Source of the DNA: Seison nebaliae
Taxonomy: Eukaryota
NCBI GenBank assembly: GCA_023231475.1
Contig: JALJEE010002868.1
Span: 62,001-118,298 of the forward strand
Reading direction: 5' to 3'
Length of the DNA: 56,298 nt
Below are positions 8,166 through 52,400 of the stretch, in pieces; position 1 is the stretch's first letter, and each line of letters begins with the position of its first letter. The position numbers and the translations under genes were made by a program. A model generated the notes under the pieces. The model was not told where the DNA came from. It did not search any database and worked only from the letters and a program-made list of their open reading frames with translations.

Positions 8166-8229
<64 letters not shown>

Positions 8230-11145: not shown

Positions 11146-13078
11146 ATGTCAAACAAAGTTGGATTACTTAAGGAGATTGCCACTCGACTCCGCTACCACA
11201 GTGTCCAAATGACACAAGCTAGTAATAGTGGACATCCGACTTCTTGTTCGTCGATGGCAGAGATGATGAGTGTTCTCTTCTTCAACGAAATGAAATTTGA
11301 CGTACAAAATCCGGATGATCCAAATAGCGACCGATTTGTCTTATCGAAAGGACATGCCGCTCCAATTCTTTATGCGGCATGGGCAGAATTAGGATCAAAA
11401 TTGATAAGCGTCAGTAAATTGTCGACATTACGACAAATGAACAGTATTTTAGAAGGTCATCCAATGCCACAAATGCCATTTGTCGATGTAGCGACAGGTT
11501 CGTTAGGTCAGGGTCTCAGTGCGGCAGCGGGTATGGCTTATTCCGCCAAATATATTGAGAAGAGTAAACATCAAGTTTATTGTCTGATTGGTGATGGTGA
11601 GAGTGCGGAAGGTGGTATTTGGGAAGCACTATCTTTCTCTTCCACTTACAAATTGAATAATTTGCGATGTTTGATCGATGTAAATCGATTGGGTCAATCA
11701 GCTCCAACCGCTTTAGCACATGACATGGAAATATATAGAAAGAGATTTGATGCATTTGGATGGAATGCCATCATTGTTGATGGACATAGTGTAGAAGAAT
11801 TGTTGGCTGGATTTGAGAAAGCATCGAAAGAAGAGAATAAACCAACAATGTTAATTTGTAAAACATTTAAAGGAAGAGATTTCCCGAAGATTGAAGACGA
11901 GTTAAATTTCCATGGAAAAGCATTAGGTGATCGATCGAAAGATGTTCTTCAACATCTCAAAAAGAAAATGGTGAAACCGATCGATTCCAAATTTGATATT
12001 GTTCCAAAAAATCGAAGTAACACTTTAAAGAAACGATCATTCAAAGAACTCATCACTAATATAGCTGCACCACCAGCATATAAAATGGGCGATTCGATAG
12101 CGACACGACAAGCTTATGGTGCAGCTCTCGCTAAATTAGGAGATGTTAATAATAATGTAATCGCATTAGATGCCGATATGAATAACTCGACATTCTCGGC
12201 GAAATTTCAAGAGAAATTCCCCGCTCGATATGTCGAATGTTTCATCGCTGAACAAAATATGGTGGGAGTAGCGGTGGGAATTGCAAGTCGAAATCGATCC
12301 ACCGTTTTCTTATCCACATTCGCCGCTTTCTTAACAAGAGCATTCGATCATATTCGAATGGCTGCCGTCTCACAAAGTAATATCAATATCGCAGGATCAC
12401 ATGCTGGTTGTTCCATTGGACCTGATGGCGTCTCTCAAATGGCGTTAGAAGATTTGGCCATGTTCCGTTCCATTCCCACTGCCACCGTTTTTTATCCATC
12501 CGATGCCGTTTCAACTGAGAAAGCTGTCGAATTGGCTGGACAGACGGAAGGCATTTGTTACATTCGATTAACTCGAGCGAATACTAATGTTGTTCATGAA
12601 CCAAGTACGAAATTCGAAATTGGTAAAGCTATCGTTGTCAGAAGTACACCATCAGCAAAAATGTTGATCATTGCTGCCGCCGTTACATTGACAGAGGCGG
12701 TTAAAGCGGCGGAGAAATTAGCTGTTGATAAGATTGATGTTGCCATCATTGATCCATTTACAGTGAAACCGATTGATAAGAAAACGATTTTAGAAACAGC
12801 GAAAAAATCAGGAAACAAAATTCTGACGGTGGAAGATCATTATCGTTCCGGTTAGTCGTCATCATAATCATGATTTGAAATGATGATGATAATTTTCTTC
12901 TATTTTCATAGGTGGTATCGGTGAAGCAGTAGCGAGTGCATTGGCCGATGAAACGGATATCAAAATAAAAATGGTTTGTGTTACTACTATTCCACATTCC
13001 GGTACACCAGAGGAAGTGATGAGCAAAGCGGGAATTGATGAAGCTGGAATCATCGCAGCGGTCAAATCATTCATTTGA
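11146..13078 (+). CDS. TKT: Transketolase (animal type); 2 exons, intron 12851-12911
   Basis: SGHPTSCSS, DRFVLSKGHAAPILYA, ATGSLGQGL, GDGESAEG, ECFIAEQNMV and VEDHYRS|GGIGEAV joined across a GTTAGT...CATAG intron. Confidence 0.97.
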
Positions 13079-13295
13079 ATTAATTAATTTAAAAAAATAA
13101 TTTTATTATTAAAAATGTTCCATTTGAATGTTTTACGTTTTTCTTTTTAGAAATTAAAATAAATTGCTTCGTCTTCGAATTTATTTGTCGTCTGTGAGAA
13201 AAGAACCAACTGTAATTGGTGGATGGAAAGTTAAAAATGTCCAGTTAAATAAATGAACCGTCCTTTTTAAATCTCCTCAACGTCTCCAGATTAAA

Positions 13296-14040
13296 ATGTC
13301 CTTACTCAAATTTCTTTTTTTCTTCTCTACAATTCTTTATCAATTCAGGTTTTTCTCTATCAATTCTCGTTTTTCTTCACATTTCGTTTAACGATAGTTG
13401 TGAATTTTGTTGTAAGGAGTATGTGAATGAAGCACCGAAAACTTATTCGACCACCATCACTTATGAGGAAATAGAACTTGTCGATCATATCATGGGTTAT
13501 GATCATACCGGTTGCATCGACATGTATACGGCGAAGGAAGGCGCACTAACCAAACCATTAAGTCCGACACAAGTCGATTTGATTAATCAATTCATCAAGT
13601 CGAAAGGAGAGAAGATTCCGACTGGAATACTCGAATCGAGAACAATCGACACTCGATGGTTTCTACAACACAAACACAAACCCACAACAATGCCACCGTT
13701 GTTGGAGAAGAATAAAGACATCTGCATCGGTTATCCCATCACTGAAAAGGTGACACAGTTAGTGAATTAATAATGTGTTATGTTGAACTACTTCTTTTCC
13801 TTTTCTTTTTTTTTAGGAAACATTTGAAAACGAAGACACAAATCAATAATTTGCCGGGACAGAGTTATTGTCCGGAAGAGAATTTGGAATGTTGTACCAA
13901 TTACGTACAAATTGGTCATAGTTGTGTCCGTTTAGTAACTTTCCTATTTAGACACTTGTTAGTGTTACACTTATGATAATTTTCTAGCGGAAGATTTTCT
14001 CAAACAACTTTCACCCGATCTCTTGAACAGCATCGGCTAA
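13296..14040 (+). CDS. Small secreted Cys-containing protein (C-terminal CC..Y......C.P motif reminiscent of EMI domains); 4 exons, introns 13349-13397, 13758-13816, 13930-13987
   Basis: The spliced frame gives signal-peptide-like MSLLKFLFFFSTILYQFSC, then EFCCKEY...CCTNYVQIGHSCVPEDFLKQLSPDLLNSIG*. All three GT-AG introns preserve frame. Confidence 0.75.
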
Positions 14041-15986
14041 ACGACGATTTTAACAATTCATACCGAAATTTCTCATTCTTCCTTTCTCATTAACTGTGAA
14101 GGAGACGGAGGAGGAAGGAGGAGAAGAATGATTAAACATAAATTACATAAATATGAGACTGATTGAATAAAGATCAGAGAAATGTTGAAAGATAAATAAA
14201 GAAATAATCGAATTAAAATTCTTTACGTCTGATATTGATTGAGGAAAGAGAAATCATTCGATCATCATATGGGGTGAAATATTCTTGAAATAATTCTCTT
14301 TTATATTAATAATTATATCATTAGATTACATCATCAACATTCTTTCTTTCTCCATACACATACAGAACTATATCGATTAAATATAATTTGAGTAAGAACT
14401 AATAACAATTGTTGTTGTTGTTGTAGTTGTTGTAGTTGTTGACGATTGTTAAGGAAGTTAGTAGTTTCTTTACAAATTTATTATATGAGAAAAAAAGAAT
14501 CATGGAAAATGAGAAGGAAGTAAAGAAGAATTTTAAAATAAATTGTGCATATTACAATTTATATGGACGGCACTTAAGCGGAAACCATAGAAGTGATAAT
14601 GGAAGAAGAATGAAGTGGTGAAAGGAAAGAGCGGTATGAAGAAAAGTCTAAATGTTGAGCGTACCTGATATTCGATAAAAATTAGAAATGGAAATACAAT
14701 AACATTCTCGACTAATTAGTTAAGCAAGCTCGAATTGTGTTTTTCTGTCAGTGATGTCCACTCCCGTTTTCCTGTTATTCAGCTTTCATCCTCCATATTC
14801 ACTATATTAACTGCCGAATAAAACGATGAAACGACTTCCCTTTTATTGACGACTAATTTCCAATGGTGTCTATGGGATAAATTGGTTGAACGGTAGTCGT
14901 CGTTTGACTGTTGAGTCCAGCGATAATCTTCCGGTTTTCTCCTCCAAGTGCAACGGGATAATCGACAAAATTTACTTCTACTATTCGGCGCTCCTCGAGT
15001 CCCATCTAATATAATGAGTCTAATAATGATGTGTTATTGGAAATGGTGTTTGTCTTCCACACACACACACACACACACAGAGAGGAACACAAAAACGATG
15101 CACATTTATACATGTAACACGAAATAACACAATTCACGCCCATTGAATGGTGTGTCCGTGAAAAGAAAATAATTGGGGAGAAAAATAAGTTTTTTTTATC
15201 TTTTCTCATCTCTGATAAAAGGAAATTACAATACATTTTGGTATTTTTATACTTTTCTCATGTAGCTTTATGTGGAGACGTTCCTATGTAATTGTTGATG
15301 GATATTTGTGCCGTGTGTCTTCTCGTCCGGTGTAGAAGGGGAGATAGATATAAAAATAATTGTATGTCGAATTGATTCTTCAAAAAGTAAATTTCATATA
15401 ACGACTTCTTCTTTCGGAAGAATTGGCCACTGAATGGAACTCATTCGATTCGAAGAGGTGAAAAGAAAAGAAAGACATTCGATTAGACAAAAGATCATAT
15501 CGCTGATATTTGGATAGTAATATCATGACTGAGAAATGTCATTCGAGAAGAGAAGAGAATGTGTGGTGAGGACGCTCCCTATGAAAGAGTGGATGAATGA
15601 ATGATGGAAATCACTTGTCCAATTTTCGATTCGTTCACTCATTTTCTGAGTATATTTCGCTCTCGAAGGGTGGACTTGTCTCAATAAATATTGGATAATG
15701 TGGAAATAGAAAAAAAAATTGAAATATTCTTAAGATGGAAAATTTATAATTTTTTTTAATTTCTCCTCAAATTAGACTTTTTTTCTCTTATCGCTTCCCA
15801 CTTTCGTATCATTCGTCTTATCGGCTGTCTGCCGTCGCCGTTCAACTATTCGCAAGACACACACACACACACACAGACACACACACAAACACAAACACGC
15901 GCAAAGAGAGAGATAGATTCAGAAAAGAGTGAAGTGGTAGAATAAAGTGAATTTAACGGGAGATCGAACTGACATGAATATATAGA

Positions 15987-17875
15987 ATGTACAATTCGAA
16001 TGACATAATCTTCCCAACCAATACTTTACTTCAAAATGAATTGATAATAAATGAATCGGCGAATATCGAGAAAAATGAAATCGATAACGAACGAAAAAAT
16101 GGAAAGAAAAGGAAATCTATTAATCATCCGGAGACAATGTCAACAAATGATGATACCTTCCTATCATACTCAAATGAACAACAACAACAACAGGAGACTA
16201 ATCTTCAACATTCCATTCCCAAGTTGTTAGTTGGGAAGAATCAATCGGAACTTCTAACCAAAACAACTACCATCAACGCCAACCAACCAAATTTAGAAGG
16301 AAACCGAAAAACGAGTCAAATGGAAAAGAAAATAGTTTATGGTAATGTCTATCATAATCAACGTAGTCAATCAGGAGGAAGATATCATTTATTAGACACT
16401 GCCTCCAACAACAACAACAACAACAATAATAATAATAATAATAATAATAAAGATGAAGATTTAGAATTGATTGATGAATCAGAGAAATTGTTAGATGAGA
16501 CGAATGTGGTTGATTCGACGAATAATTTCCTCCCATCCAAAAATCAGAAAAATAAGAAAATTGATGGAAAGAAAGGAAGTAATCGTTCGACGATCAGATC
16601 ACTACAACGATTAGCATCAACGTCACAAATGGAGAATGTAGGAGAAAGTAATACTGTCCGTCCTCCGGGCACATCATCTGACGATGTAATCCATTATTTG
16701 GCATCAGTCCCGAAGAATTGTGCGGAACAAGTCGAAGGTTTCGCCAAATATGTTTGGGAGACAGGATGGCGAGTTATGCCACATCACGCTCTTCCGCCTT
16801 GGTTGAGAGACAACGATTTCTTATTAAGAGGTCATCGTCCTCCACTCTCCTCATTTCGCGAATGTTTCAAATCGATTTTTCGCATTCATACTGAAACCGG
16901 AAATATTTGGACACATCTCTTAGGTTTATTCCATTTAATTTCATCATCTCAAAATTAATCTCATTTCATCTCTCTTGTTCAAGGCACTTTGGCATTCATT
17001 GGCGTAGCGAGTTACTTTCTCACACGTCCATCACAAGAAATTCAGTGGCAAGACAAGATGGTATTCAGTGCCTTCTTCTTTGGAGCAATTCTCTGTCTTT
17101 TATTTTCAACTTTGTTCCATACACTCTATTGCCATTCTCCACGAATCAGTAAATTATTCAATAAGTTGATATTTGTTGAGAAAATAATTGAAGAAAATTT
17201 TAAACTTTATTTCAGATTAGATTATTGTGGAATTTCTTTCCTTACTATAGGCTCATTTATTCCTTGGTTATATTATGGATTCTATTGTCACATAACGACA
17301 AAGATGGCATATCTCGCACTTATTCTCATATTGGGCACGGCGTGTATTGTCGTGTCATTGTGGGATAAGTTTAGTGAACCCCGGTTTCGAGTAGTACGAG
17401 CAGGTTCCTTTATTTATAATTTAATTATCTTTCAAATTAATTATCTTTTTAGGAATGTTTGTTGCACTCGGTTTATCTGGTATCATACCAGCTATACATT
17501 ACTATATATCCAATGGGGCAGCAACGGCATTTTCAGTTGGTTCGTTGCATTGGCTCATCATTATGGCCACTCTGTACATAGCGGGAGCGGGGTTATATGC
17601 CGCTCGTATTCCCGAACGATTATTTCCAGGTATATTTCACATTTCTTCCCACAATTATCACTTAACCTGCCCATAATTCACTCTTTCTAGGACGTTGTGA
17701 TATCTGGTTTCAATCTCATCAAATTTTCCACATTTTCGTCGTTTTAGCCGCCTTCGTTCATTATCACGGAATCACCGAATTAGCTGCGTATCGACTTCGA
17801 ATTGGCGATTGTATGGGAAGTGATCAGCAACTGGAATTCATCCAACATCCCCTCTATCCGAAAGTCGATCTCTAG
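15987..17875 (+). CDS. ADIPOR: Adiponectin receptor (PAQR family); 5 exons, introns 16924-16983, 17165-17215, 17404-17452, 17630-17690
   Basis: LPPWLRDNDFLLRGHRPPL, SIFRIHTETGNIWTHLLG, FHTLYCHS, KLDYCGI, RIPERLFPGRCDIWFQSHQIFH. Confidence 0.96.
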
Positions 17876-19176
17876 AATTATTTATGGGACGGAACTATAG
17901 TGGAAGTGTTATATCATTTCCCAGAATTTTTGTTCCATTTATTCATGTATCAATTTCATTTTATTCATTAAAAAAAATTTACATTATTTAAACACGAACA
18001 ATTTGCGGATACGAAGAACAAACGAAATTTATTAATTCTCTCACAATTTCACTTAATTGTCAAACTGAATTTCCATCAATTGTCAACTTTAATTAGGAGA
18101 TTGATGTGTTAACTCCGATATTCGTCTCGTCGTCTCTTTTGATGCTCATACAAATCTCAATAATTTCACACGTATGTAAATTCAATAATGAAATATTTCT
18201 TATTTTCGTTTTCATAATAATTCTTATTTATTTTATTTATTCATTTGTAATTTATCATCGTTCCTATAATATAATCCTCTTCTTTCCAATCATTCTCTTC
18301 CCTTCCATTAATGGTATGGAACGAGAGATTCTCTAAATTTAATCGATCTATAAAAAAATTTTTAAAATTTTTTAAATAAATTCTCCAAATATATTTTAAG
18401 TTGCTGCTAGTTCCTCATCCACAAACAAACTTGTCTGTCTCTAGACTTTCTTCCTCTTACAACTCATCACCATTTCCCCTCTGTGTTGAACAATAAGAAT
18501 TTATGATAATAAGATGTAAGAATTATTTTTGAAGAATTTGTTCGACTTTGCACTCCTATTATTCGTGAAGGAAAGAATGCGTCTAATTCCCATTCCATTT
18601 ACAATGGTCACCAAACATAATTAATTAACAACTTTAATTCTTTTTTCGTCCACTTCTCTTCCAATGGACATTCGACGATTATATAAATATATGAACGGTC
18701 AATTTAAATCCGTCCATCACAATCATCGAAATGATTACAGACGAACGAAGAGAACCATCATTCTTCTTCCAAACTCAATTGAGAGAAGGAAGAATCGAAT
18801 GAATAAATTACAAAAGGACATCATGCTCAACGAAACAGGATGACGAGAATATTCTTCAAAAAATGATTTAATGATTCATAATCTACTTCTCATTATCTCC
18901 TATTTGGTTTTCATGTTCATGAATGAAATTAGGAAAAAAAATGTTTTTTTTTTATTCTCTGAAGAATGACATTCTCTCCAGCACTATAGACTGTGAAGAG
19001 GACTCCAATTCGAATCTCGATCCCCATACAGGAAGGACGTCATATTTTGACTTTCTTCCATCTCTCTAATCTCATTCCAATTAATTTCTCATCCAACTAA
19101 TTCAATATCCAACTCATTTGAGACGAGTTGAAACGTCATCGTTCACATTCTCTCAAATACAACCATAGTCTTCAAG

Positions 19177-20362
19177 GTATACGGTGATTTCGCCATCCTG
19201 ATATTTTGCCACCCTGTTTTATCCATTTTGGACAGTTCGCCACCCTGAATATGGACACTTTGCCATCTTGTGTGTATATTTTCGGTGATTTCGCCACTCT
19301 TCTATTTAAATAAAATATACATTTTTTTATTCTTCAAGGAATGGACACTTTGCCACCCATCTTTTTTTAAAACAAAATACTATTTCGGTGATTTCGCCAC
19401 CCTTCTATCTAAATCTGTCTATTTATTTTCAAGGAGTGGACACTTTACTGTCCTGTCTTCTCTTATGTTTTCACCTTTTAAGTACATGAGTTAGATCATG
19501 AGTTACGATCACGCCAAATCACCCCTGCTTTTATTAATTAGAATTTCAGTTTTTACTTTAATAATTGTTAATAAAATTATTAAACGATTGTAGGAGTTTT
19601 CACAGTTGGAGATTTCAGCGGACAATTTTTTCGAACTTTTTTTTAAACTTCCCTTTTTTATAGAAAATATTTAATTTGTGATGATAGTTTTATAAGATGT
19701 TAGATATTAAATAAGTTGATAGGATATCTTTCTGATGTATTTTTTAAAAAAAAATAAGCGGACAAATCCACATACATACATTTTCCTTATTTTTTTGAAA
19801 AAAGGACAAAAAACATAAAGAGAAAAAGGGAAGAGAAAGCAAAATCACTGTGTGAAATTCACCTATTAAATTAAAATAAGTAAGTAATAACATAATAAAA
19901 GTAAGTAAGTATTAAGTTATCGTTAATATTAAATAATTAGTTAACTAATTGATTAACTAATTAATTATTATAATAATTTTATTAACAATTATTAAAGTAA
20001 AATCTGAAATTCTAATTAATAAAAGCAGGGGTGATTAGGCGTGATCGTAACTCATGATCTAACTCATGTACTTAAAAGGTGAAAACATAAGAGAAGACAG
20101 GACAGTAAAGTGTCCACTCCTTGAAAATAAATAGACAGATTTAGATAGAAAGGTGACGAAATCACCGAAATAGTAATATTTTTTTAAAAAAAGATGGGTG
20201 GCAAAGTGTCCATTCCTTGAAGAATAAAAAAATGTATATTTTATTTAAATAGAAGAGTGGCGAAATCACCGAAAATACACACACAAGATGGCAAACTGTC
20301 CATATTCAGGGTGGCGAACTGTCCAAAATGGATAAAACAGGGTGGCGAAATCAACGGGATTC
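19177..20362. mobile_element. Non-autonomous Mutator-like (MULE/foldback) element, 1186 bp, with about 400-bp TIRs and a perfect 9-bp TSD
   Basis: TSD GTCTTCAAG at 19168-19176 and 20363-20371. TIRs at about 19177-19583 and 19968-20362 are near-identical reverse complements and carry repeated (T)TTCGCCAC/TTTGCCAC subunits. The core is AT-rich and non-coding. Confidence 0.92.
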
Positions 20363-21789
20363 GTCTTCAAGAGCGATAAGATAAATTTTAATAGAAATAA
20401 TCATCAATAACAGTCATTCATGTGGATAAATTGAATTTTTCCTTACAATAATTCTTACAATATTTGTTAGAAGAAATTGGTAGATAAATACTCCATACCG
20501 ATGGAATAATTGTCAGGAGAATAATAACAATCATAATTCTCTTTAATCATATGTTTGAATGGACTATTTTTATTTTTCATTCATTTAATTTAATACTCTT
20601 ACAGTCAAGGATATTTTAGGGAAGACATAAAACTCGTTTTTACTTAAAGGATTATTTCTGTCGTTGTTTAGTGGAGAAGAATGATGAGAATTATTCAAGA
20701 AGATTTTCTAAAGTATTTTCGAATTGAATGATTTTTAGTAGAAATCTAATAAAAGATTACCTGTCCATAAGAATAGAGTGAGGAAGGTGGACCACTTCTA
20801 CTCCCCATTTCCCTTAAACATGACAAATGGGAAAATGGACAATGAATTAATATATTCGTTCCCAATACAAAAGGGAAGTATTAAGTAGGAAGGGTAGAAG
20901 AAGCAAGATTAAGATCTGTCCTTTTCCTTCCCATTGAAATTTCAAAGAATTGAACTATCCACCAACTGGACCACCATCTATCGAATTGCCTACTATCTAT
21001 CTTCTTATTTATCTATCTATTTATCATTTTCCAAAGAAATAATAATGATTATCTGACAAATATTAATAATTCGACTTTCCAATGAAAATTGTGTGTGTTA
21101 AACGATTATTTCATGGGGGAAACAGGAAAATATGAAGGAGAAATTGGGAACTGTTTCAATGAATGTGAAAAATGAATTTTATGCTTCCACAATTGCTTTC
21201 TTTTAATAATATTTCTTATTAACCATATTCGATAAGATTTGAACGTTTAACCGACTTTCTTCCCTCATAGAAGTTGCTTGGTTGGTTTTAATTGAACTTT
21301 CTCCAACTCACCAAGTCAACAGAAGGAGGAATGGGGGTGGATGACAATTATTTATTTTTTTCGCCCAACCGATCATTTCTCCTTATTCAATTCCTCCCAA
21401 CGTCATGTACATTACTCAACAAATTCATATTTGTCGTCCGTAGTAGATAGAATAGTAAAAGATGAATCTTAATCGCGTCTATTTACATTTGACATATTAT
21501 GGACATAGGTAACATGAAAATAAGAAATTTTTTCTATTTAAATTTATCTATTTCTCTTTCAAATATTTTCTTCATTTCTTGAAAACTTTCAATTTCCAAC
21601 AATCATTTCCTTCTAATATATCTCGTGTTTTTCTCTCATTTCTCTCCTAATATTCTCTAACTTTCCAAACACTCTCTATTCTTTCTCTCTTTTTCTCTCT
21701 CTCTCTCTCGTTCATCATAAACATTTATCATTCATTCTTCAATTCCTTCTCCAATTTCTCGAAATCAGATCACCATTTAATTAGACGAA

Positions 21790-23773
<1,984 letters not shown>

Positions 23774-24070
23774 CATCCATCTCTCTCCTCAACGAGTCGA
23801 AACCTTCGAGAAATTTCCTGGTGAATTCACAACGAAGAAAGCGAATTAGCTTCTTAATCTTTTTATTTTTTCAAGAATTCTTCTATTTCACATCTGATCG
23901 CACCACCGTTTTGTAAATGAATATCCACTCTCCCACACAAAACACGCACACACTGCCCACACATCTGTTCTTATTCATTCTTATTTTACTAACGACCAAT
24001 TATTATTAAAACGTTTCAAATAAAGAAATATCAATTTATTATTATTATTTTTTCTTTCTTTCAATTAAAT

Positions 24071-25048
24071 TTACAATAATTTCTTAGAGCGTATAATACC
24101 CGAACGGATACCTGTCTTCTCTCCACTATATTTCTCCATACTTCGTTTCTGATCGAATTGACGTTTCTGTCCACGAAGCGAAATTAATGCTTTCGAATAT
24201 TTCCTTCTGTGTTTGACTCGAGGATTATTCTTGAATTTTTTCCTTCGTAATTCATCCAACGACTTATTCTTCTCAATTCGATAACTGACTTTCCTCTTAT
24301 CATCATCATTATCTTCACCATCATCATCATCATCATCGCTTATTTTTTCTTCTTTTATTTCTTTTTCTTCTTTTAAATGAAGATGAATTTGTTCAAATAA
24401 TTCTTTTTGTCGCAATCGATCCATTGATACATTGTCACAATTTTCAAATTTCTTCAAAAGTTTTTTTAGAAGGAAAATATCCTTCAAAATTGGATGAATC
24501 TTCTTCTCTAACGATATGATTTCCTTCTCATTCTTATTGTCGTTGTCATTGTTATCGGAGTCGGAGGAAGAGGAGGAGATGAGTAGAAATAAACATAATT
24601 TCATCGAATAAACATATCGGAGAACTTGAAGAAAATCATTTTCTACATTCTTCTTTTCCAAATCATCCAATTCATTCTTCAATTCTCTCAATAATAATCT
24701 CATTTCGTCATTCATCACAATCGTCTCATCATTCATTTCTTCCATATTCTCTTCCTTTATCTTTCTTAATTGACCCAATATGAAATGGTTTGACGACGAA
24801 GACGAAAGTAAACGCTCTTTCCCATTATCATATCTGATATATTCGTTTTGTTGTATGGTTATCGCTTCCTCTTCCTCCAACAATTCGTCATCTAAATCTG
24901 CTTCGAAATTCTTCTTCTTCTTCTGCTTCTTCTTCGCTCGTTTCCATTGACCTTGTTCATTCGATCCATAATAATCCGACTGTTTCTTTCCCCAATTTAC
25001 CTTCCCAATTCCTTCGTTTTCATCCTCTACCACTTTGATCACCATCAC
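24071..25048 (-). CDS. UTP3: Sas10/UTP3 (SSU processome component); 5' end uncertain
   Basis: C-terminal Sas10 domain KNNPRVKHRRKYSKA...YSGEKTGIRSGIIRSKKL. N-terminal WGKKQSDYYG and EEEEAITIQ resemble the Sas10 N-terminal region. Confidence 0.88.
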   Translation of the reverse strand: MMVIKVVEDENEGIGKVNWGKKQSDYYGSNEQGQWKRAKKKQKKKKNFEADLDDELLEEEEAITIQQNEYIRYDNGKERLLSSSSSNHFILGQLRKIKEENMEEMNDETIVMNDEMRLLLRELKNELDDLEKKNVENDFLQVLRYVYSMKLCLFLLISSSSSDSDNNDNDNKNEKEIISLEKKIHPILKDIFLLKKLLKKFENCDNVSMDRLRQKELFEQIHLHLKEEKEIKEEKISDDDDDDGEDNDDDKRKVSYRIEKNKSLDELRRKKFKNNPRVKHRRKYSKALISLRGQKRQFDQKRSMEKYSGEKTGIRSGIIRSKKLL

Positions 25049-27407
25049 CTTATCAATTTGTAAAACATGGAATTATCTCAAATGCTTCAAATTTAAAATT
25101 TCTTAATTTATTTCATCATTCAGAAAATTGTTTGACTTCTCGTTGAGCTTCAAACTCCTACAAATTCAAAAAACTCATTAATTCTTCATTTTTGTTTGAT
25201 TCAAACATTATCGTTTGAATGGGAAAAATTAGCTGGTTAGATCTGGGAGATTATCCAATATGTTGTCGTTCGAAGGAGAATGATTAATGAGAATAATTTT
25301 CAGTGTAGATAAATAAGAGAAGGATGATAGGGTTGATAATGAGGGCACTCTCGAAATGAATCAGAATGATGAGAAGATGTAGATAAGAACTGCTCAATTA
25401 GAAGTGAAATGATAAGTTAAAGAAGAATCTTAATTGAAAATCATCATTCTCCATCTAGCTACATATGTTATCCTTTATTTGTGTGGGTTAAACTTCCCTT
25501 CGCTCACTACTCAGCGTTCTTACTCCAAACAACTTCTCTACTCGTCAAAGAGCTGACAAGGTAGTTGTGTAAGTCCCTCGTCAATCTTCTGGATTGACTC
25601 TATCTTATGCGTTTTACGTTACGAATGTTGGAAAAACTACAAATACTTCTCTTGTGATCGATTCATTTTTCAAATCTCATATTTTAATTATCATTATAAC
25701 TATCATTTTGTCAAAAACAAAACACATTTACTCCATTTGCGTAATTTTCGATTGTAGTAATTTCTATACGTAATCTATAAAAAATGATGTTTTCCTAAAG
25801 AAGCTAAACCGGTTTAGTCAAAGCGTAAATTAATAAACATTTTACTATCAAATCTTACACATCAAATCCTAATATAATAATCTACGTCGATCTTCCTTTT
25901 TTCACTTTTCATGAGAAGTGAATATGTCAACCTTCATTCTCATACCCATCAAACTGATTTGATAATCATTAATCATTTTTAATTAAATTTAAATGTTTAG
26001 TAAATGTTCCAGACTAATCGAATTGACATTAAGTTACTGTCAAAATTAAATTAAATTTCTTCAAATAAACCCATTCGTTTATCTCAGGATGGTAGTTGAG
26101 TTTGGAAGTTTGGGGTGAAACTGCTATCCAAACTCTAAATGTAGCTCATTCTTTTATATTTCTTATTAAAGATGTAACTTTTCAACTTTTACCCAATACT
26201 GGCAATAATTTGTGTTAAGTTAAATTAAGTTCGAAGTTTCATAAGAACGTGCGTTTGATGTTAGTTATATGACATGAAATTTAAGTTTAGATAATTTGTC
26301 CATAGTCCTCCAGCAAATTAGACTTATTCGAATTTGAATTTATTAGAATTCCTAATGGACAAATAGAAGATGTTGAATGAGAGTTGGGAAATATTGGAAA
26401 TAATTCTAGAATAGGTATTTTGGGGAGGTTGTAGGGGGAAGACGGGATAGTTATAATTTACAAGTTGTCAGTCTGTGAGAGTTATAAACTTCCCATTTCG
26501 TTCCGTTTAGAGTTTAGGTATTAGATTATGGTTTATCGATCAGTTGTTAAGAGGAACTAATTAAAGTTCCCACATCACTTCGTTAATAGCGAGTTAGATA
26601 ACATTTGATATTGTTAATAAAGAAGATTGGTTATAATTAGGATTTCGTGGGAAAGATGCCTAAGAGAATGACAAGAAATATCTAATCATAATCTACACTG
26701 ACCTTCATTTACATAAGGCTCCCTCACATTGTTCTCTCACGTACGTTTGAGTAGGTGAATAATATATAACATATTATATCGTATGATATCTGTTATGAAA
26801 ATTGCTTCACATGTCTTTTCCTTTCCTCTAGTTTGTCTATCCGTCGTCGTTCATTCGATTCTATTACTTTCCACATGCATGTTCCTTAACTGCTTCTTCT
26901 ACATGTCTCTTTTCAACTATAATACGGACATGGTTTTTCGATGACGTCAAATATTCGATTGACTTTCAAAATAGATAAATTTTTATTTCTCCCAATCATT
27001 TATAAACGTTATTCATTCAATCAAAATGTACGAAATGGGGAAAACTTCAAATTTATTATTTTTTATTTCTTCAATACATTTGCCTTCTCCTCAAAATACA
27101 TTCAACTTTCTCATATCATAGTTTTAGCAAGCAAGCTAGCTAGCTCACTTAACGTCCTATCATCTTTTACCATTGTATTTTCCGAAAGAAAATTCTACTC
27201 CCAACAAGATTGAAACATCTTCCCCCACTCCCCTTCCTCCCCATTTTTCACAAAGCATTTGATGCGAATGTATTCATTTTCTCTCCTAAATCTTCTATTA
27301 ATGTCCCTCTCGAACAACACTTGTTATATGTACGTCCCCCCTCCTCTTGCTAGATTATTGCTCTTGCTTCCTTTCATACTTTTCTCAAATAGTTCTTTCA
27401 CAACAAC

Positions 27408-27975
27408 ATGGTCAATCGACAACGTTCACCCTATCGCCATGCCGATGGTAGAATCGACGATACAAAATACATTCAACATATGGAAAAATTACATCCAACT
27501 AAACCTTTAGAACCACCATCAATTCCTATTGATCAATATCCCATCAATTTCGATCCAAATCCGATCGTCATCAATAAGGAGATTCCCGAACATATGATGC
27601 CAAAACAACCACATGTTCAATTAGTTCAGATTAGATATCTCCAACCACCAACACCACCAGAACCCGCTCCAATTATAGTGAGAGAGATTCGACCGAAATC
27701 TTATCCGGAAAAACCACCGGTTCGAATTCGACAACGACAACACCGTCAAAAAACTCCACCACCACTAGTGATTCGAGTGAAACCGCCAGCGCCACCGCAC
27801 ATTGAGAAGGAAGTGAAATATATTGACGTTAAAACATCCGAAGATGCTCAACAAAAAGTTTCGAACTCGTTTTATCAACATTTTGAATTTATTAACTGAT
27901 TTTTTTTTCTTAAATTCTCTTTTCATTTAAAGTTATCACAACATCAACATCGTAACCAACATCAAGAACGATACC

Positions 27976-28016
<41 letters not shown>

Positions 28017-28259
28017 ACACAACAAACAGATTCCAAAATTTATTCGTCAAATTATAATGTCAAGCAGAATGGATCATCCTCTGCCAAGATGTTTAGTGCA
28101 ACGAAAGAATTCTGTTAATATTCTTCATAAAAAATGAAGAAATTTTTTATAAATCTTTCTATTTTAGGGATGAATGATCCACGATTGTTAAGACTATTGA
28201 GAAAAGGGAGTAGTTACACAGACGACGATCTTCGTCGTTTGGGATTCTCATTTCAATGA
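27408..28259 (+). CDS. Proline-rich protein (YPIN.DPNP / RYL.PPTPP / TPPPLVIR family); 3 exons, introns 27858-27932, 28114-28167
   Basis: YPINFDPNPIVINK, VQIRYLQPPTPPEPAPIIVRE, KTPPPLVIRVKPPAPP. The spliced frame continues through poly-Q to ...YTDDDLRRLGFSFQ*. Confidence 0.8.
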
Positions 28260-28860
28260 AGCAAGCAATTCTTGAGTTGAAAGAACTAAATCTTTTTTTA
28301 AACTAATCTTTTTACTTTTTATTATTTATTAGAAAAGAAAACTATTTTTTTTTCTTTCTCATTAATGCGGAACTGTGAGGAATTTCTTGTTTTTAATCTT
28401 TTTTTCGATGCCGAATTATTAATCAGTTAATGATGAATCTAAAATTATTATTCGTAGAAATTAATTATTAAATTTTGATTCAATCATCATCCAATTCAAA
28501 CCATTATTATTATTATTATTATTATTATTCTTATTATTATTATTCCAATTATTCTCATTCATTCCCATCAATCCATCGAATTAAGATAGTAACCATCAAC
28601 TTTTATTTTATGATTTCTAATAAAATAAGAAAGGAAACACTCATCATTTGAAAAAGTCTATTCAAATTCAACCAATTATTACTTCTTATATTAATATTAA
28701 TCTAATTATAACTTCTTTTACAATTTTGATAATTTAATTAGTAACTTGAAATCGATTAAGGAAACTTAAAATTAAAATTTTTTCAATTAACAAATGAATA
28801 AAAATTTTGTTTTTATTTGAAAAAATGGAAAAAGTAATAAGAAAAAGTGTTTAGACATAA

Positions 28861-43088: not shown

Positions 43089-45623
43089 TTACACAAATGT
43101 TCCTTTTCTACTGATGTTGTTGTTCTTGTTGGTTTTGGGGTTGGTGGGAGTGGTGGTAGTGGAATCGACAATTTTAATAATTTTCGAACCATTTTTAGTA
43201 TGAGAGTCTGTCGTTCGACGATAAAAATAAAATTCATTTTTTGGATTATTCGAAATTTCATTAATCGATTTCTGTTGTAACATCGACGTTGATTTATGAA
43301 TTGATCGATTGTTCATCGGATTATCCGATTGTTCTTCATTCTTCGTCTCTTCCATCTCCAAATTCCATCCTGTTGTTCTGATGGTTTCCGGACGGTTCTG
43401 ATGGTTGGTGGTGAGTGGAGGAGAAGGAGAGAAATAGGAATTGGGTTTATTGGAAAATGTTTCTAACAATTTCTTCTGACTGGATCCATTATTCTCTCCA
43501 TCATTACAACAATAAATGAATGGATCATTTTTCATATTTCGATTGGTAATAATATCTCCCGATGATTTAGTTGTCATGGAAACATGACGTTTCGCCATAT
43601 TAGCGAAAGTACCATCAGGTTTCATCGTTCGATTATAAGAATTTTTGAACGGTTTAACTTTCGGTGGTAATGATCCAACTAAAAAAGAGGGAGTACTATT
43701 ATTCGTATAAATTTTAGATGACGTCGATGATGATGATATTGTAGTGGTAATGGAAGGAGAGTTGGAAGAAGAAGAAGATGATGTTGTTGTTGTTAATGAT
43801 GTGGTAGTGGTAGTGTTGGTGGATGATGATGATGATGATGATGATGAATAATTATTTGAATTAACGATATTATGATAATTATCATATTTTAACCATAATC
43901 GACGATCTTTTGATGTCGATCGAATTTGTTGGACGTCATTCGATGGATAATTACCACCTTTCAATTCCATATCACTTACATGAGCATTCAATAATTCATC
44001 AATATTTCTGGAAGAGTCTTTCGTTTTGTTTAATCCATTGGCAGGTGTTATATGATCATCGATTGGATGATGATGGTTCGGTTTAAATGGTGAAATATAT
44101 TGATAATTATTCTCATTATCTGACGTGTTGTTGTTCAACGAATTAAATGATTTCAAAATCTTCTTCGTATCTAGACGATTTACACAACTGTGTTGCGTCA
44201 ACAAGAGAAGTTTAGATGGATTTTGGGTAGTTCGATCATCTGTCTCTCTCGTCGTCAAATATCGATTGAGTGTGGTAGAATTGGTAAATTGTCGAGAAGA
44301 AATATCTGATTGATGAAGATTAATGTCGGAAGTGGAACGACACGTTAATTTGGGAGATATGTTCTCGTCATTACAATTCCGAATTGGCAATTCTCTCACC
44401 ATTTTCTTCTGATTGAGATGATGAGATTTCTTCGATATTCCATCAGTCAATGGGAACCATTCATCACATACGATATATTGAAAAGGAGAAGGAATAGAAG
44501 TAGTGGAAGTAGAAGTGATTGAAGAGAAATTTTTTCTTCTCAATTTAATCGTGTTAAATTCATTCAAAAATTTCTTCATCAAATTCTTATAATGTTCAAT
44601 CGCCATTGTTGTTATCAAATATTTTCTATGATATCTAACATATTGTTGTTGTTGTTGTTGTTGGTGTTGGTGTTGTGGTTGTTGTGGTTGTTGTTTATGG
44701 AGAGTTGATGAATCATCTTTCTTTTTCGATTGTTTCGTTTGTCGATTATTATCGAATGAATTTTGTTGTTCGACGACAACATTCTTCCAATCTCCTTCCA
44801 GATTTTTCAAAGAATTCTCAAAGAAACTCTCGTACGAACTGGATATTCGTTGAATGATTTGATTATAGAAATCATAACGATGGTTCTCATTCGCTTGTCG
44901 TTTTCGTTGAGCGATACAAGTAATTATCTTGAAGAAATGAGATGAGATATTCTCCAAATCCTTCTCCATTAAACTCTTCAAACAATTCATATATTTCACT
45001 TTATTATTAGAGACGATTGGAAGTATCATCCGATTGGCAGTGATGGAAGGGACAGTTGTAGTGGTGGTAGTGTTGGAACGATTGAGTTTTGATGATAAAT
45101 TCATTTGGAAATCTTTCTCTAATTTCTTCAATTTATTCATTAATAATTCTTTCTTTGTCGTCTCTGATAAATTATTTATTTGCAATCTCAACAAATATCG
45201 TAACAATTCCATTTTATCGATCAATAAATACAGATCGCTAATCAATTGTTTCGAGGCATTCCTCCAGATACATGTCGTCGACGAATTGGGAAAAACGATT
45301 CGACAAATCGAATGACCACATTTCTCATCAAGTTTAATAATTATCATTGTGAATTTGTTGTGAATGTGAAGTAGTTTAGTTAGAATGACTTCGATATTCT
45401 CATCCGTTTTCATTGATAATCGATTATTTTCTAATTTGGTTTTATTCTCATTAAAAAAATGATATTCTGAACTATCACCATTCTTTTTCTTATTATTATT
45501 ATTATTATTATTGTTGTTGTTGTTGTTGGTTGTGATTTGTTCAACATGACGAACATCACTAATTGTTCGTGATGATCTGATCATCGTATCAGCACGATTC
45601 ATTCGATTATTTATCAATACCAA

Positions 45624-45674
<51 letters not shown>

Positions 45675-48113
45675 GTTATTGTTGTTATTATTGTTGGGAT
45701 GTTGTCGATTATCTGTTGTTCGAAATAAATCATTTTCAATTGTCATCATACCAGTAGCAGATAATGATTTACTAGCAGTTGTCAATCGATTACGAGCATT
45801 ATCGGATGATGATGAGGAAGATGATGAAAGAAAATCATCAAACTTCCGTAATGGAACACCAAGACGATTCTTATTGAAATATTGTTTGACGGGAATGGGT
45901 GGACGTTTAATATTATTTCGTCGTTTCTGTGTTGTCCGAATGTCACTGCCATCAGAAGTGGTACTGAGAGTGGCGGCAGGCGAAGAAATTGATGGTTTCA
46001 TTATCGATCGGATGGTTCTCACTCCAGTGACGAAAGCAGCAGTAGGTGATAAATTGAGATTGGTAGATGATCTAAATAAAATATGATATGATATGATAAT
46101 AATAAGAAGAATTTGAAACTTATCGAGAGATGAATGTCGTTTCAAATGATCTTTATTCTTCTTCTTTCCACCATCTATCTTGTCGATATTAATCGATTTG
46201 TCGTTTAACGACTTCTTCACTTTCTCCAACTTCTTTCTCTTCTTTTCCGATGAATCGGAATTATTGACCATTGTCAATCCTTCACCCAATTGTGTCTTCT
46301 CCGACAATTGAGAATGAAGTGAAGAAAGTGAAGAATTATTACTCAGATTACTCGATGATGTTATCGAACATGATGACGATGATGATATTTGACAAAGTGA
46401 CGAACGAATATTAATTGGAACAGATGAAGACGAATGACGACGATGTTTCTTTATCTCATCATCATCATCATCACCATCGTCAATTTTCTTCTTGTTCTGA
46501 TTGAAGATTGAGGATGAGTTTTTTGTTGAAAGGAAATAATTGTCATTCATTCTCAATCCATTCCTTAAAGGACTGATGGTTTTATGATGGAAATAATTTT
46601 GATTATGATCGTTCACTTGATCGGATGAGATCGTCAATCGATAAATGGTATTGAGATATTGTTGAATAATCGATGATTGATTCTCACTCTTATTAATCAT
46701 TAACAATCGATCATTGATCAATTCGATCGTTTCCTCTTTCTGAATTCGATTTGCCCCAACTATTTGTCTCTCCACTTTAAACTTCCGATTCCTTAACGAT
46801 CTTTTATTTATGAGATTTCCATCAAATTTCTGAGAACGATCAAGTAGAAATTGATGTTGCCAAATTGCCATTGTCCATAAACTCTTACAAATTTCACTAC
46901 TATTCGTATGCCAACTCTTTACTTTTGATAACTGTTGTTGTTGTTGTTGTTGTTGTTGTTGAGGAGATGAAATATTCAATGAAGATTTATTTGTTGATGG
47001 GGTTGTTGTTGTTGATGATGATGATAGATTGATAGTAGAATCAGTAATTGTTGTATTATTAAGAGAATTGGAAGTGTTTAATGACGATTGATTTGATGGT
47101 GTATTCTTCAATTGAATTGAGAATTTCTTATCACAATAATAAATATTCTGTAAATCATCCCATACAAATGATCGTACCGGTGTCAAACGATTTCGTTGTC
47201 CATACACTGAAATGCCATCGATTGATATTCCTAAATATACCGACTTTCGACTCAATATCGACGTGCCCGATTCGCACACATGGAAGAAATGTTCCCCATA
47301 AAATTCAGTTCTTGATAACAATCGGAAGAATCTTCACAAAATAATCATTTTTTAAATGAGAAGAGAAATGGAATGAACTCGATGAATGATTGACCGGTCG
47401 TACGAAGCGCAATAAATTCGGTTGCTATCGACAAAATTTCTCGTTGTTGTACCACAGACAATTTGGGAAGTTTCGAAGTCTTCATCCATCGATGGAGAAC
47501 GCATTTACGTAACTCCTCACTAAATAAGAAAGAAGATAATAATAATAATGATTATATAGAAGATAAAATTAAAATTTTAAATTAAAACTTGGAATCAGAT
47601 CGACAGATAATATGAAGAGCGTTCGCTAATATCTCATTCTCATAATTCTCTGATAAAATCTCTCGCTACAAAAATGGGAAATAATCGAAATAAAGAAAAG
47701 ACAAAAAAAAATGAAGAAAAGAAAACTTTAAGGAACAAATCGAAGAAATGAAGAAAATAAAATTCGATGAATCCAATACATTTCACTTTTGTGATATCAT
47801 CGATGAAATAACTGAAAAATTAAAAAAATTTTTTTTAATAAATTTTTTTTTTTCATTTTATTTCAAATCTCCTTCAAATTCCTTCTAGAAAGAATAATGT
47901 ATGGAGAATTAACCGTATTCTCAATTGTAACGATAAAATTTTTGTTTTTCTTCGACTAATCAATTCGTTGTTGAGGAATGGTTGATCCGGCTCCAACCAA
48001 CAATCATTATGATGATATTCTCTATTGTTATTGTTATCGTCATTTTCTTCAGGATGATTTTCATCTAAATCTTCTTTCTGATTCGTTTCATTATAATCAT
48101 AAACTTTTGATGA

Positions 48114-48144
<31 letters not shown>

Positions 48145-48477
48145 CTGTTAATAGTTTTTAATAATGATAGTAGTAATAATAGTAGTAGAATAGTAGTAGT
48201 AAAAAGAAGAAATTAAAAAAAAAAAAAACTTATGGATGAAAGTGAGTCCAAGATAATGTTGGAATGGAATCATATCATGTTTCTTCGCTATTACACTAAT
48301 CAGTTGATTGGGAGAGTCGTGTGGATGTAATTCATAAATGAAACGTTCATCCTGAAATAATGTTATCTCACAAATTATTATATTCGATTCATCTTCTATA
48401 TTTTTTTTTTGTTGTTGTTGTTGTTGTTGTTGTGATGGTGAAGAATTTTCAGAAATGAAATTCTCTTTCACTTTCAT
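43089..48477 (-). CDS. FRMD4: FERM-domain protein, FRMD4-like; introns 48145-48229, 47812-47913, 47666-47726, 47520-47588, 47332-47378 and probably in-frame 46072-46119
   Basis: FERM N-lobe (YLGL, WLEPDQP, LQLRIRYFIDD), FYGEHFFHV, VYLGISIDGISVY, FVWDDLQNIYYCDKKFSI, KSLWTMAIWQHQFLLDR (FRMD4 signature); C-terminal PDZ-ligand-like GTFV. Confidence 0.88.
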
Positions 48478-49403
48478 AATTAACGAATTTCTTTTATATT
48501 ATTTTCTCTACTACTATGAATCGTTGTCATGTCACAACCGAAAGACGATAACGATAACGATGATGATGATGATAATATTGAAATTAAGAATCAAGAAACG
48601 GAAACATAAAAAAATTTTCAAAATCTCATTTTCCGTTTCAGATGTCTTTCTTCTTTTTTTTCCGATTTTCAAATGGTTGTTAAAAGAAAAAAATTATTAA
48701 ATTATGTTTCGATAAATTTATTCAATTGGGATTGAATCGATCACATCGTGAGTTAATATACAAGACAACATATCTAAAACAACAATAGACTGTTGTTGTT
48801 GAGACGTTTAAAAAGGAAAATAATTCAATTTTTTTTTTAATAATTCCACTCTTCTCTCCAATTGACATCTCCTCAATCCCATCAGACGAACATTCTCAAT
48901 TAATGAGAAATCAATAAAGAAAATTCATTCTCACAATTCCTTTTCACTTCTCTTCGATGATGTTTAAGGTGATGATGTGAGAAGAAAAAATTTCTTTTAA
49001 ATTTCATTTCATAGAGAAATGTGTCTCTTCATTTCGGTGAGTTTTTCATGGTGAAATTTTATCTTGATAAATTTCCCATCCACCTTTCACCTCTTCTCCA
49101 CCTCCAAAAATTGAAGTTGATGGAAATTAAACTAAATTTCAAAACTAAAATTTTGAATGAAAATTCTTCTTCTCTTCCATCTCTTCATATCTCATATTTC
49201 TCTTAAATCTTCTGGAACATTTCCACCTCAACTTTATTTAGGACGACATCAAAATATGTTTTCGTTTATTCACAAAAAAGTTTCATAAATTCATAAAAAT
49301 CTTTGTCCCAAGGGGGATTCTGAATAATAAGAAAAAAAATCAAATTCATTAAACTATCTCGCGACGAGATCAATCCGACATTTCTAATTCGAATGTGAAT
49401 GTG

Positions 49404-52400
49404 ATGGTAAGCATTGGTATTTATCTGTTGATCCTTTTATTAACTCCCTTCATTCGCCCACAAGTTATTCCTTTATAACTTTCCATCATTTCTCTTCTGT
49501 TTCTTTTTATTAATTAGAATTCGCCTCATTTCTGATTGATGAAAAAATTATTTTGAAAATAAAATTTAATTATTTTCTTTTATTTTCTTCTCACAGACGA
49601 CGAATGATGATAGTCAATCATTAGATTTTACTCATTTCTCCAATTCTCCAATTACCGAAAAGTTTCTTCCTCTCTCCAAATTCCATTTGAATAAATTTGA
49701 TAATTCCAAAGAAAATTCTTTCTCATTTCGACGATCGACGGGAAATTGAGTTTAATATCGAATGACAATCCCAGAATTCTTTGGACGTTTGATGGTATTG
49801 CGGATAATACTACCGATTCATCTACATTACTCAATTTGGAATATGTTGATTCAGTTTCATCATTATCATCTTCTTTCTCTTTTTATTTTAACTTATCTTT
49901 TATTTGTTAGTCGAAAGATGGTAAGAGTCAATATATTCTCGCATTAAACGGATCGATTTTCTTTAAAGATGATGATGGTATCTTCAAATTACGCTCATTC
50001 ACTGAGATGAGTAATTTGCATTCCATCTCATCGAATAATCGAAGAAATAATTTGGTGAATGTTGGCAGTTTCACCAAAATAATCATCGCCCTCAATATGG
50101 ATGACGGTAATTTATGTTACATGTGGACGGACAATGGGAAGAGCACATTCAACTATAACGATCAATCGCTGTGTATCCCATTGACATTGTATCGGCAGAA
50201 GATTTTCATGTCAGAGAACAAGAAAAATTTCAATGAGAAATTTTTCAAAGCGAGGTCTCATTTTCACTTTCAATAATACAACCATCCTTCCTTCTCCAAC
50301 TAACAAATCGTAAGAACTATCACTTAAACAGTATTGTGGATGTTTGATTGAAATTATTTTCTCATATTTTTTTTCACTATATTCTAATACTGAATTTTCT
50401 GTCTAAAAACAATTTTCTCAAATTGACATTTTATTGAATTGAAATTGAATTATATTTATTATTCCTTTTTATAGTGTAAGTGAATATGAAATTAACGATT
50501 TACCCTGGATCAATAATCGATCGATTGATTATAGTTTCTCATTATTATTTCATCCACTCCAACTAATTGTGATTGGGAAGGTCATATTCGAATGAGGACC
50601 AATTCAAATACATTTATTGTGGACAACAATTCCATTTCGTTCCAATCACCAGTCACTCGAGTTTGGGAAATGATCGGATATTATCAGAATGAAAAATTAA
50701 TGAATATTTTCAGTAAACAATTAGATCTGTTTCATTGTTTCCACATTTCAAATCCGTATTCGTACGGATATATTGGGAATTATAAGAATATGGAATATTT
50801 AATATTACCAGAAGAAAGAATGAAAGGAAATCTGATAACGGATCGATCGTTTATTAATGAGGAAAAGAAGAATTATATCGAATTGAAAGTATCACCAGAA
50901 GTGATGGAAGAGAAGAATGCGTTGCAGCCAATTTTCGATTTCGATCAAAATTTTCGAAATTTGAAAGAAAACGGAGAAAAAACGGAAATGCCAACAGAAG
51001 AAAATCTCAAGAAGGAGTTAGTTCAAGTGAAGAATTTTTTCCAACAACAACTCTCACTCAATTTGGAGGATATCGACTTTTCTTATTATGTTCTCATTCT
51101 GCTGATGTTCGGGGCGGCGGTTCGATGGATTTATCTTCTCGTCAACGAACGACGGGAACATGATGACGAGTTAAATCGATTTATTAGCGATAAATACCGT
51201 TGTCAATTAGTAGAGATAATTGACGAAGTGAAAACATCAGTTGAAAGAAAAAAATCTTCGACTTCCATTAACGTCGAAAGTTCATCCTCTTCATCAACGT
51301 CATCAGCGAAGAATTCTTCAACAAATGTCTCACCGTCATCGGCGAAGAATTCTGCAACGAATGTCTCATCGTCAAATCTATCGACTAAATCAGCAAATAC
51401 TTCCCGTTTCTGGAATGAATACACTGATTTCCAGGTGTTGGGACAAGGCGGTTACGCCGTCGTTTTTCAAGCAAGAAACCGTTTGGATCAAAGAGAAACG
51501 GCTATCAAACGAATACTTTTAGATAACGAAGACGAAGATAAGGTAACGAGGGAAGTGGTATCATTCGGTCGATTAGTTCATCCGAATGTTGTCGCTTATT
51601 ATCATAGTTGGAAGGAAACAATCAGTTTTGATTATCAAAAACATTTAGAACAACTTTATGCGTTAAATGATAAATTATTACTAGCTACTGATTGTGAGAG
51701 TCAATCATTATATTCCTATACCCAATCCGGTTATTCTGTGGTCGATATGTCCGACGCATCTATCAGGAAAGGTAAGGAACAATTGAAAAAATTGTCCGTT
51801 TCAACGGTATCGTCCGATTTTAAAAATATCGATATCAGCTCATCGTCGTTGGCTATCAGAGATGATAGAAGGATATTTAATAAAGATAAACTCCAATGTA
51901 CCACCACATCCACATTGTCCGATGACATCCCATCCGTTAGTTATTTGTATATTTTGATGGAATTGTGCAATTCGGGAACGTTACGAGATTATTTGGATAA
52001 AGGTAACGAAGTGTTCGTCAATGACGACTATGTCGATTGTTTTATCTTTACCAATCACCAAGTTCGATCACTAATAGAAGTGAAACGAATATTTAAAGAA
52101 ATGTTATTGGGCATCCAATATATTCATAATGAAGGATGTATTCATCGTGACTTGAAACCGTCCAACATTTTCATGCAAAGTAAAGGAAAGATAAAAATCG
52201 GCGATTTCGGTTTGGTTGTGGACGAGAAGGCACGTCCAGATTTAGACCAAACTAAAACAAATAACCAAACTAACAATCTACTGACTGATAATGTCGGAAC
52301 TGAATTATATATGAGTCCCGAACAAGTTCTTATTTAACTTTTTTTTGAAAATATTAAAATTTCTTTTAGAAATGTGGTAGTCGTCAATACGATAACAGTG

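Follow-up and report, generated by a model that had tools for sequence, protein, structure and literature searches.

Near-universal GTT donors at the introns of a Seison nebaliae genomic window: a shifted donor code and its possible reader

To our knowledge, GURAG-type donor sites and the U1 small nuclear RNA (snRNA) 5′ end are nearly invariant across animals. Many GTT donors are found in bdelloids and in some nematodes, and Roca and Krainer reportedly observed shifted or bulged U1 registers at atypical human donors. A near-universal U at the third intron position (+3) has been described for Entamoeba, in which 88–90% of the donors are GUUUGU and the co-evolved U1 ends in ACAAAC (Roy and Bowser, bioRxiv 10.1101/2022.06.08.495308; this preprint and the PMC articles mentioned below are cited from their available parts). 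Two donor classes are distinguished in PMC11732430, GURAG and AG//GU, and in the latter an exon-side AG offsets weak intronic pairing. Here we describe the introns in a stretch of 56,298 nucleotides from the marine rotifer Seison nebaliae (contig JALJEE010002868.1, positions 62,001 to 118,298), referred to as the window, where most donors start with GTT and fall into neither class.

All donor counts refer to this one window, in which 12 intron-containing genes on both strands were modelled, yielding 41 introns and 42 donors (Table 1). The window has a GC content of 32.7%, and all 12 gene models are open through the last intron. GTT opens 39 of the 42 donors, GTA two and GTC one. None of the donors is GTRAG, a motif found 25 times on the sense strand inside the gene models and never serving as a donor, and a G at +5 is present in four donors, which is the background level. 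The rebuilt models thereby bear out the sequence-only reading of this DNA, which had counted about 37 GTT starts among about 40 introns, no GTAAG or GTGAG, and a +5G in only about four introns. Within the window, the GTT donor bias is genuine and pronounced.

The junctions were graded in three tiers. Tier A consists of 15 donors in three genes, placed where four S. nebaliae proteins annotated by NCBI map exactly; the exon queries of transketolase, SGK and ArfGAP1 are 100% matches to the proteins SNEBB_003165, SNEBB_003168 and SNEBB_003172, respectively, the last with two annotated isoforms. Tier B contains 12 donors with junctions inside a conserved domain, four of which (RING intron 2, two in the FERM gene and PERK intron 2) were called from motifs alone, and tier C contains 15 donors placed by frame and stop codons only. 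All 15 tier A donors are GTT (SGK 9/9, transketolase 1/1, ArfGAP 5/5), among them a pair of alternative donors, 24 nt apart, that share one ArfGAP intron, and each tier A junction has a single GT..AG placement. Tier B comprises 10 GTT and two GTA donors, and tier C 14 GTT donors and one GTC donor.

With 93% T (95% confidence interval 0.81–0.99), position +3 stands well above the T content of intron interiors (0.482) and of positions +4 to +12 (0.524), and also above the frequency of T following GT, which is 0.40 window-wide, 0.36 at internal intron GTs and 0.32 at exon GTs. The binomial p values are 8e-10 against the intron interior, 2e-8 against +4 to +12 and 8e-13 against the window-wide frequency after GT. 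The excess is also present in tiers A and B together (25/27, p=1e-6), in tier A (p=2e-5) and in the donors fixed by homology (13/15, p=0.002). Information content drops from 1.56 bits at +3 to 0.39 bits at +4 and 0.15 bits at +5, positions +4 to +6 being near the intron background, and 24 different hexamers are found among the 42 donors. A residual signal is given by the six donors that start with GTTAG or GTTTAG (p=4e-4, post hoc).

The junctions were also checked independently of the annotation. For four genes, hidden Markov models (HMMs) were built on homologs other than those of Seison (58, 79, 67 and 50 proteins out of those fetched, the AdipoR set with at least 180 amino acids), and every open-frame GT/GC..AG alternative at most 75 nt from a junction was scored. 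The modelled junction ranked first in 16 of the 18 introns, one of the winning junctions having a GTA donor; the two misses, SGK introns 3 and 4, lie in an unconserved linker. The margin over the best non-GTT alternative is at least 10 bits for eleven GTT donors and 2–7 bits for four. In addition, at the two fumarylacetoacetase introns, of which one starts with GTT and the other with GTA, the flanking exons align exactly in register with the solved structure of PDB entry 9sqs, and the exons at the last PERK-like junction are continuous with PDB entry 4g31 within one residue. GTT starts 13 of the 15 introns whose junctions are set by homology alone, which upholds the earlier assertion that the bias does not simply reflect the choice of donor, and conserved proteins are restored only when the modelled introns are removed. 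Contigs of two DNA runs over 16469–19205 and 20326–24291 (the AdipoR and SGK regions) show 0 differing letters, and hence the donors in these regions are not assembly errors. No intron-skipping joints were found in the contigs of these runs for region 11000–30900, and an Rfam search of the whole window matched no family.

As in U2-type introns, the ends are GT-AG and the 3′ ends are pyrimidine-rich, with T in 24–30 of the 41 introns at each of the positions −5 to −9. The GURAG consensus and the AG//GU class are absent as general features, since GTRAG donors are lacking, +5G is at background and −1G is not enriched (12/42, p=0.11); −2A is enriched (24/42, p=0.001). The acceptors are TAG in 25, AAG in eight and CAG in eight introns, with position −3 near background and no preference for CAG; this relaxed −3 position makes the PRP8 alpha-finger of interest. 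The median intron length is 53 nt, 36 of the 41 introns measuring 37–75 nt, and the interiors contain 48% T and 5.8% G, compared with 18.5% G in the exon flanks. A YTRAY branch-point motif occurs in 16 of the 41 introns (raw count). In the available part of a transcript-mapping table for other contigs (PMC8351084, supplement 2), most intron-sized gaps are about 42–92 nt, so that short introns are general in S. nebaliae. When 18 exon/gap signatures were compared with the searched rows of that table (GMAP alignments of Trinity transcripts), two matched (1 and 7 rows), with neighbouring lengths all unlike those of the window genes. An introner origin of the introns was considered and rejected: the mean pairwise score among 38 introns is 16.9 versus 16.4 for shuffled sequences, with the maximum within the shuffled range, and no terminal inverted repeats are evident (score 6.5 versus 6.7).

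The donors resemble those of Entamoeba in their near-universal +3U at GT-AG introns of an AT-rich genome. Unlike Seison, however, Entamoeba is intron-poor and has a strict motif with +5G kept, whereas GTTTGT is found at 0 of the 42 Seison donors and +4 to +6 are degenerate. Furthermore, the Entamoeba U1 has been described, whereas the system of this animal is known here from 42 donors in 12 genes. With regard to the donor classes of PMC11732430, the three non-GTT donors of the window are all AG//GU and so resemble the exon-side compensation described there, but AG precedes only four of the 39 GTT donors. The suggestion that this is an undescribed system goes too far, because donors that almost all carry +3U, matched by a compensatory U1, have been published for Entamoeba (bioRxiv 10.1101/2022.06.08.495308). 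What we did not find described is an animal that combines a near-universal +3U with erasure of the remaining donor consensus. No description of a rotifer or Seison donor consensus was found in the literature searched, which did not cover subscription papers, figures and preprint supplements, and a search for Seison together with the spliceosome gave no literature match. The available text of PMC8351084 does not discuss a donor consensus and its two supplements contain no spliceosome terms; the accessible parts of PMC11347168, PMC10125929, PMC7310846 and PMC10597677 hold no rotifer donor data, and that of PMC4901422 deals with GC donors.

The splicing machinery likely reads these intron starts by means of an altered recognition RNA, for which the Entamoeba U1 provides a precedent. 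Our preferred reading, to which we assign a probability of roughly 0.45, is a U1 variant that matches a donor reduced to GTT and reads +3 with an adenosine in its 5′ end (a U6-to-A change within U1, ACUAAC-like). The third donor base would pair with this adenosine, and pairing at +4 to +6 would be given up. Splicing would otherwise be of the ordinary U2 type and proceed by intron definition: an intron would be recognized by being short, rich in U and poor in G, and the +3U pair would select the exact GT within it. Donors without +3U would be rescued through pairing of an exon-side AG to U1 or to U5 loop 1, so that +3A, normally the best base, would now be the base in need of rescue.

Several observations are consistent with this reading. 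An exon-side AG precedes 3/3 non-GTT donors versus 4/39 GTT donors (Fisher p=0.003; small numbers, post hoc), and 2/2 versus 3/25 in tiers A and B only (p=0.03). It thus seems that +3U acts as a positive determinant, as each donor that lacks it has the exon AG; and since a canonical U1 would pair with +3A and no rescue would be needed, the exon AG before the GTA donors speaks for a changed reader. In leave-one-out donor picking on 38 short introns, composition finds 27 donors, composition with length 29 and a further +3T term 34, compared with 19 for a GURAG matrix; the respective numbers for tiers A and B (n=25) are 19, 21, 23 and 13. Composition and length thus find most donors and +3T adds more, as expected of intron definition in which +3U does the fine selection. 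The simplest reader would be an adenosine facing +3; the G of U6 snRNA at that position should favour C as well, yet C occurs at +3 in only 1/42 donors. The residual GTTAG/GTTTAG signal would complement a U1 ACUAAC, either directly or by bulging a single U. More tentatively, the whole major spliceosome may have been recoded in an intron-rich animal, with a main U1 that carries A opposite +3, with the +4 to +6 and −1G signals gone, and with nothing but GTT, length and the scarcity of G to define the introns. The claim of altered donor recognition in the sequence-only reading is thus partly supported: it stands as regards a shifted code, with +3U position-specific, +5G at background and exon AG before every non-GTT donor.

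A number of points weigh against the proposed U1 variant. U1 pairing stays weak, with a mean of about 5.2 of 9 pairs for the U6A variant versus 4.3 for canonical U1. The exon-AG compensation involves three donors, one of them uncertain, and fits rescue by the U5 loop equally well (PMC11732430), and for tier C the donor picking involves some circularity. Moreover, a canonical U1 is reported to persist in most of the lineages whose donors are atypical (Saccharomycotina, Giardia, Trichomonas, Mamiellales and Thecamonas; bioRxiv 10.1101/2022.06.08.495308).

When metagenome contigs were scanned for U1 with the U6A change, five loci emerged, four of which are full-length U1 genes with the 5′ end AUACUAACCUG in two flank types: L015 1080–1240 (−), L016 2888–3048 (+), L018 343–503 (+) and L019 347–507 (−), scoring 138–141 bits. 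The four genes are near-identical across flank types and would pair perfectly with GUUAGU donors; the fifth locus, L017, has no proper 5′ end. The flanks look non-coding and unlike the window, and the loci are therefore from another organism, not from Seison. They show that the proposed U1 variant exists, and nothing more. Among genome contigs, the U1 motif was found at 12 loci, of which 10 were tested; all 10 are U1 according to Rfam, and nine of them are canonical. The tenth (L014 87–252, +; 90.9 bits) is divergent: its 5′ end, GUACACACCUG, is complementary to GUGUGU, and its contig is assigned to a bacterial metagenome-assembled genome. These eukaryotic U1 genes in GTDB prokaryote genome contigs (L003–L014) represent host or co-sample contamination, and one of the contigs carries three U1 copies about 2.7 kb apart. 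A motif scan for U1 in viral contigs gave two matches, neither of them U1, and no rotifer ArfGAP loci were found in viral contigs.

It is rather unlikely that the snRNAs are canonical and that proteins select +3U instead; the selecting protein would be an altered U1C, LUC7, PRP8 or SNRNP27K or else a U-binder of the TIA-1 type, and introns this short would hardly depend on U1 pairing. The retention of canonical U1 in the lineages listed above speaks for this explanation, as do the shifts in donor preference caused by LUC7, SNRNP27K and METTL16, SNRNP27K acting on +3 (PMC11732430), and the lack of about 35% of the metazoan BUSCO genes in S. nebaliae (PMC8351084). The relaxed acceptor position −3 (A in 8/41) points in the same direction, this site being read by Prp8 Gln1594 in yeast (bioRxiv 10.1101/212811). 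A general U-binder, however, would not yield a one-base peak that falls to background at +4.

Selection by U6 snRNA is improbable. Here +3U would pair with the U6 ACAGAGA box, either by wobble with G or after a G-to-A change, and U1 would have little weight; according to Roy and Bowser (bioRxiv 10.1101/2022.06.08.495308), GUUUGU could indeed pair more fully with the canonical U6 ACAGA. Nevertheless, the main U6 contacts, +5G and +4U, are at background, and +3C, which as the Watson-Crick partner of the U6 G facing +3 would form the best pair, is the rare base noted above.

We consider it quite improbable that a canonical U1 binds in a shifted or bulged register (GTT-N-N-G-T). GTTTAGT is seen three times and bulging of +3 raises the mean canonical pair count from 4.3 to 4.7; the human donors with such registers share the GTT start, but the displaced +6G is not enriched in Seison (4/42) and GTTNNGT occurs in 3/42 donors, both near background. 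A shifted-register donor class was rejected, as G at +6 and T at +7 are not enriched, and so were U12-type introns, with the U12-type donor consensus RTATCCTT at 0/42 donors. Finally, an artefact of T-rich introns combined with self-trained gene prediction or donor choice, or recent introner-like insertions with GTT ends, is very improbable: 15 of the 42 donors rest on frame alone and the junctions were modelled from DNA and protein, none from RNA, but the homology-fixed donors keep the bias, the 38 introns are no more alike than shuffles and are devoid of terminal inverted repeats, the hexamers are diverse, and the DNA contigs confirm the sequence where they cover it.

Table 1. Introns of the window, with donor hexamers and junction support. 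Lower-case letters are exon bases, a slash marks the junction, and bits are HMM margins over the best non-GTT alternative.
Intron	Positions	Strand	Donor	Site	Tier	Support
Transketolase	12851..12911	+	GTTAGT		A	HMM rank 1, +31 bits
13.3 kb gene 1	13349..13397	+	GTTTTT		C	
13.3 kb gene 2	13758..13816	+	GTTAGT		C	
13.3 kb gene 3	13930..13987	+	GTTTAG		C	
AdipoR-like 1	16924..16983	+	GTTTAT	acceptor AAG	B	HMM rank 1, +54 bits
AdipoR-like 2	17165..17215	+	GTTGAT		B	HMM rank 1, +12 bits
AdipoR-like 3	17404..17452	+	GTTCCT		B	HMM rank 1, +49 bits
AdipoR-like 4	17630..17690	+	GTATAT	exception, cag/GTATAT	B	HMM rank 1 of 5
SGK 1	21856..21902	+	GTTCAT	acceptor AAG	A	HMM rank 1 by only 1.7 bits
SGK 2	21987..22046	+	GTTCAT	acceptor AAG	A	+31 bits
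SGK 3	22178..22217	+	GTTATT		A	HMM rank 4, linker
SGK 4	22434..22489	+	GTTTAG		A	HMM rank 4, linker
SGK 5	22773..22820	+	GTTCAT	NGGE/LF	A	+28 bits
SGK 6	22934..22982	+	GTTTAA	IIY R DLK	A	+45 bits
SGK 7	23020..23067	+	GTTAAT		A	+7 bits
SGK 8	23251..23298	+	GTTCCA	YGL/PPFY	A	+40 bits
SGK 9	23548..23602	+	GTTAGA		A	+25 bits
27.4 kb gene 1	27858..27932	+	GTTTCG	acceptor AAG	C	
27.4 kb gene 2	28114..28167	+	GTTAAT	nearby GTG donor also in frame	C	
RRM gene, last	28963..29015	-	GTTTCA		C	
ArfGAP1 1	35411..35457	+	GTTCAT		A	+77 bits
ArfGAP1 2	35979..36020	+	GTTTCC		A	+5 bits
ArfGAP1 3, alternative donor	36202..36475	+	GTTAAC		A	annotated isoform P0242
ArfGAP1 3	36226..36475	+	GTTTAG	acceptor AAG	A	isoform P0361; +7 bits
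ArfGAP1 4	36536..36583	+	GTTCCT		A	+11 bits
38 kb gene	38137..38173	-	GTTATT		C	
RING gene 1	39908..39975	+	GTTTGA	GHLF C W	B	exon end at RING profile position 21-22, motif
RING gene 2	40058..40105	+	GTTAAT		B	motif spacing
Fumarylacetoacetase 2	41364..41419	-	GTATTT	exception, cag/GTATTT	B	in register with PDB 9sqs
Fumarylacetoacetase 1	41637..41685	-	GTTTTT		B	in register with PDB 9sqs
FERM gene F	46072..46119	-	GTTTCA	in frame, no stop	C	
FERM gene E	47332..47378	-	GTTCAT	acceptor AAG	B	motif only
FERM gene D	47520..47588	-	GTTTTA		C	
FERM gene C	47666..47726	-	GTTTTC		C	
FERM gene B	47812..47913	-	GTTAAT		B	motif only
FERM gene A	48145..48229	-	GTTTTT		C	
PERK-like 1	49464..49596	+	GTTATT		C	
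PERK-like 2	49662..49711	+	GTTTCT	acceptor AAG	B	motif only
PERK-like 3	49854..49910	+	GTTTCA		C	
PERK-like 4	50255..50474	+	GTCTCA	exception, gag/GTCTCA	C	uncertain
PERK-like 5	50534..50580	+	GTTTCT	acceptor AAG	C	
PERK-like 6	52326..52369	+	GTTCTT	SPEQ/	B	PDB 4g31, within one residue

Other features of the window include an intronless open reading frame (ORF) of 688 codons at 7198–9264 (+) that has low-complexity inserts and an N-terminus resembling ParA/MinD ATPases (AAA_31, E=3e-11), possibly a bacterial-derived gene, and an apparently intronless Sas10/Utp3 gene (PF09368) at 24074–25072 (−). A large inverted repeat at 19180–20350, where contig depth is raised 7–8-fold, resembles a non-autonomous DNA transposon, and another inverted-repeat element was recognized by eye at 9860–10260. 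The region 53046–56298 holds frameshifted fragments that, from motifs in the ORF list, we take to resemble a DDE transposase (−) and a reverse transcriptase of a long interspersed nuclear element (+).

A lineage that splices, also alternatively, on little beyond GTT would be a natural test of the U1 and U6 pairing needs of the metazoan spliceosome. Generic donor models would mis-call genes here, as seen from the 19/38 donors found by the GURAG matrix against 34/38 for the +3T model. Seison may also serve to test whether co-evolution of snRNAs with splice sites is possible where introns are abundant; Entamoeba, the example published so far, is intron-poor.

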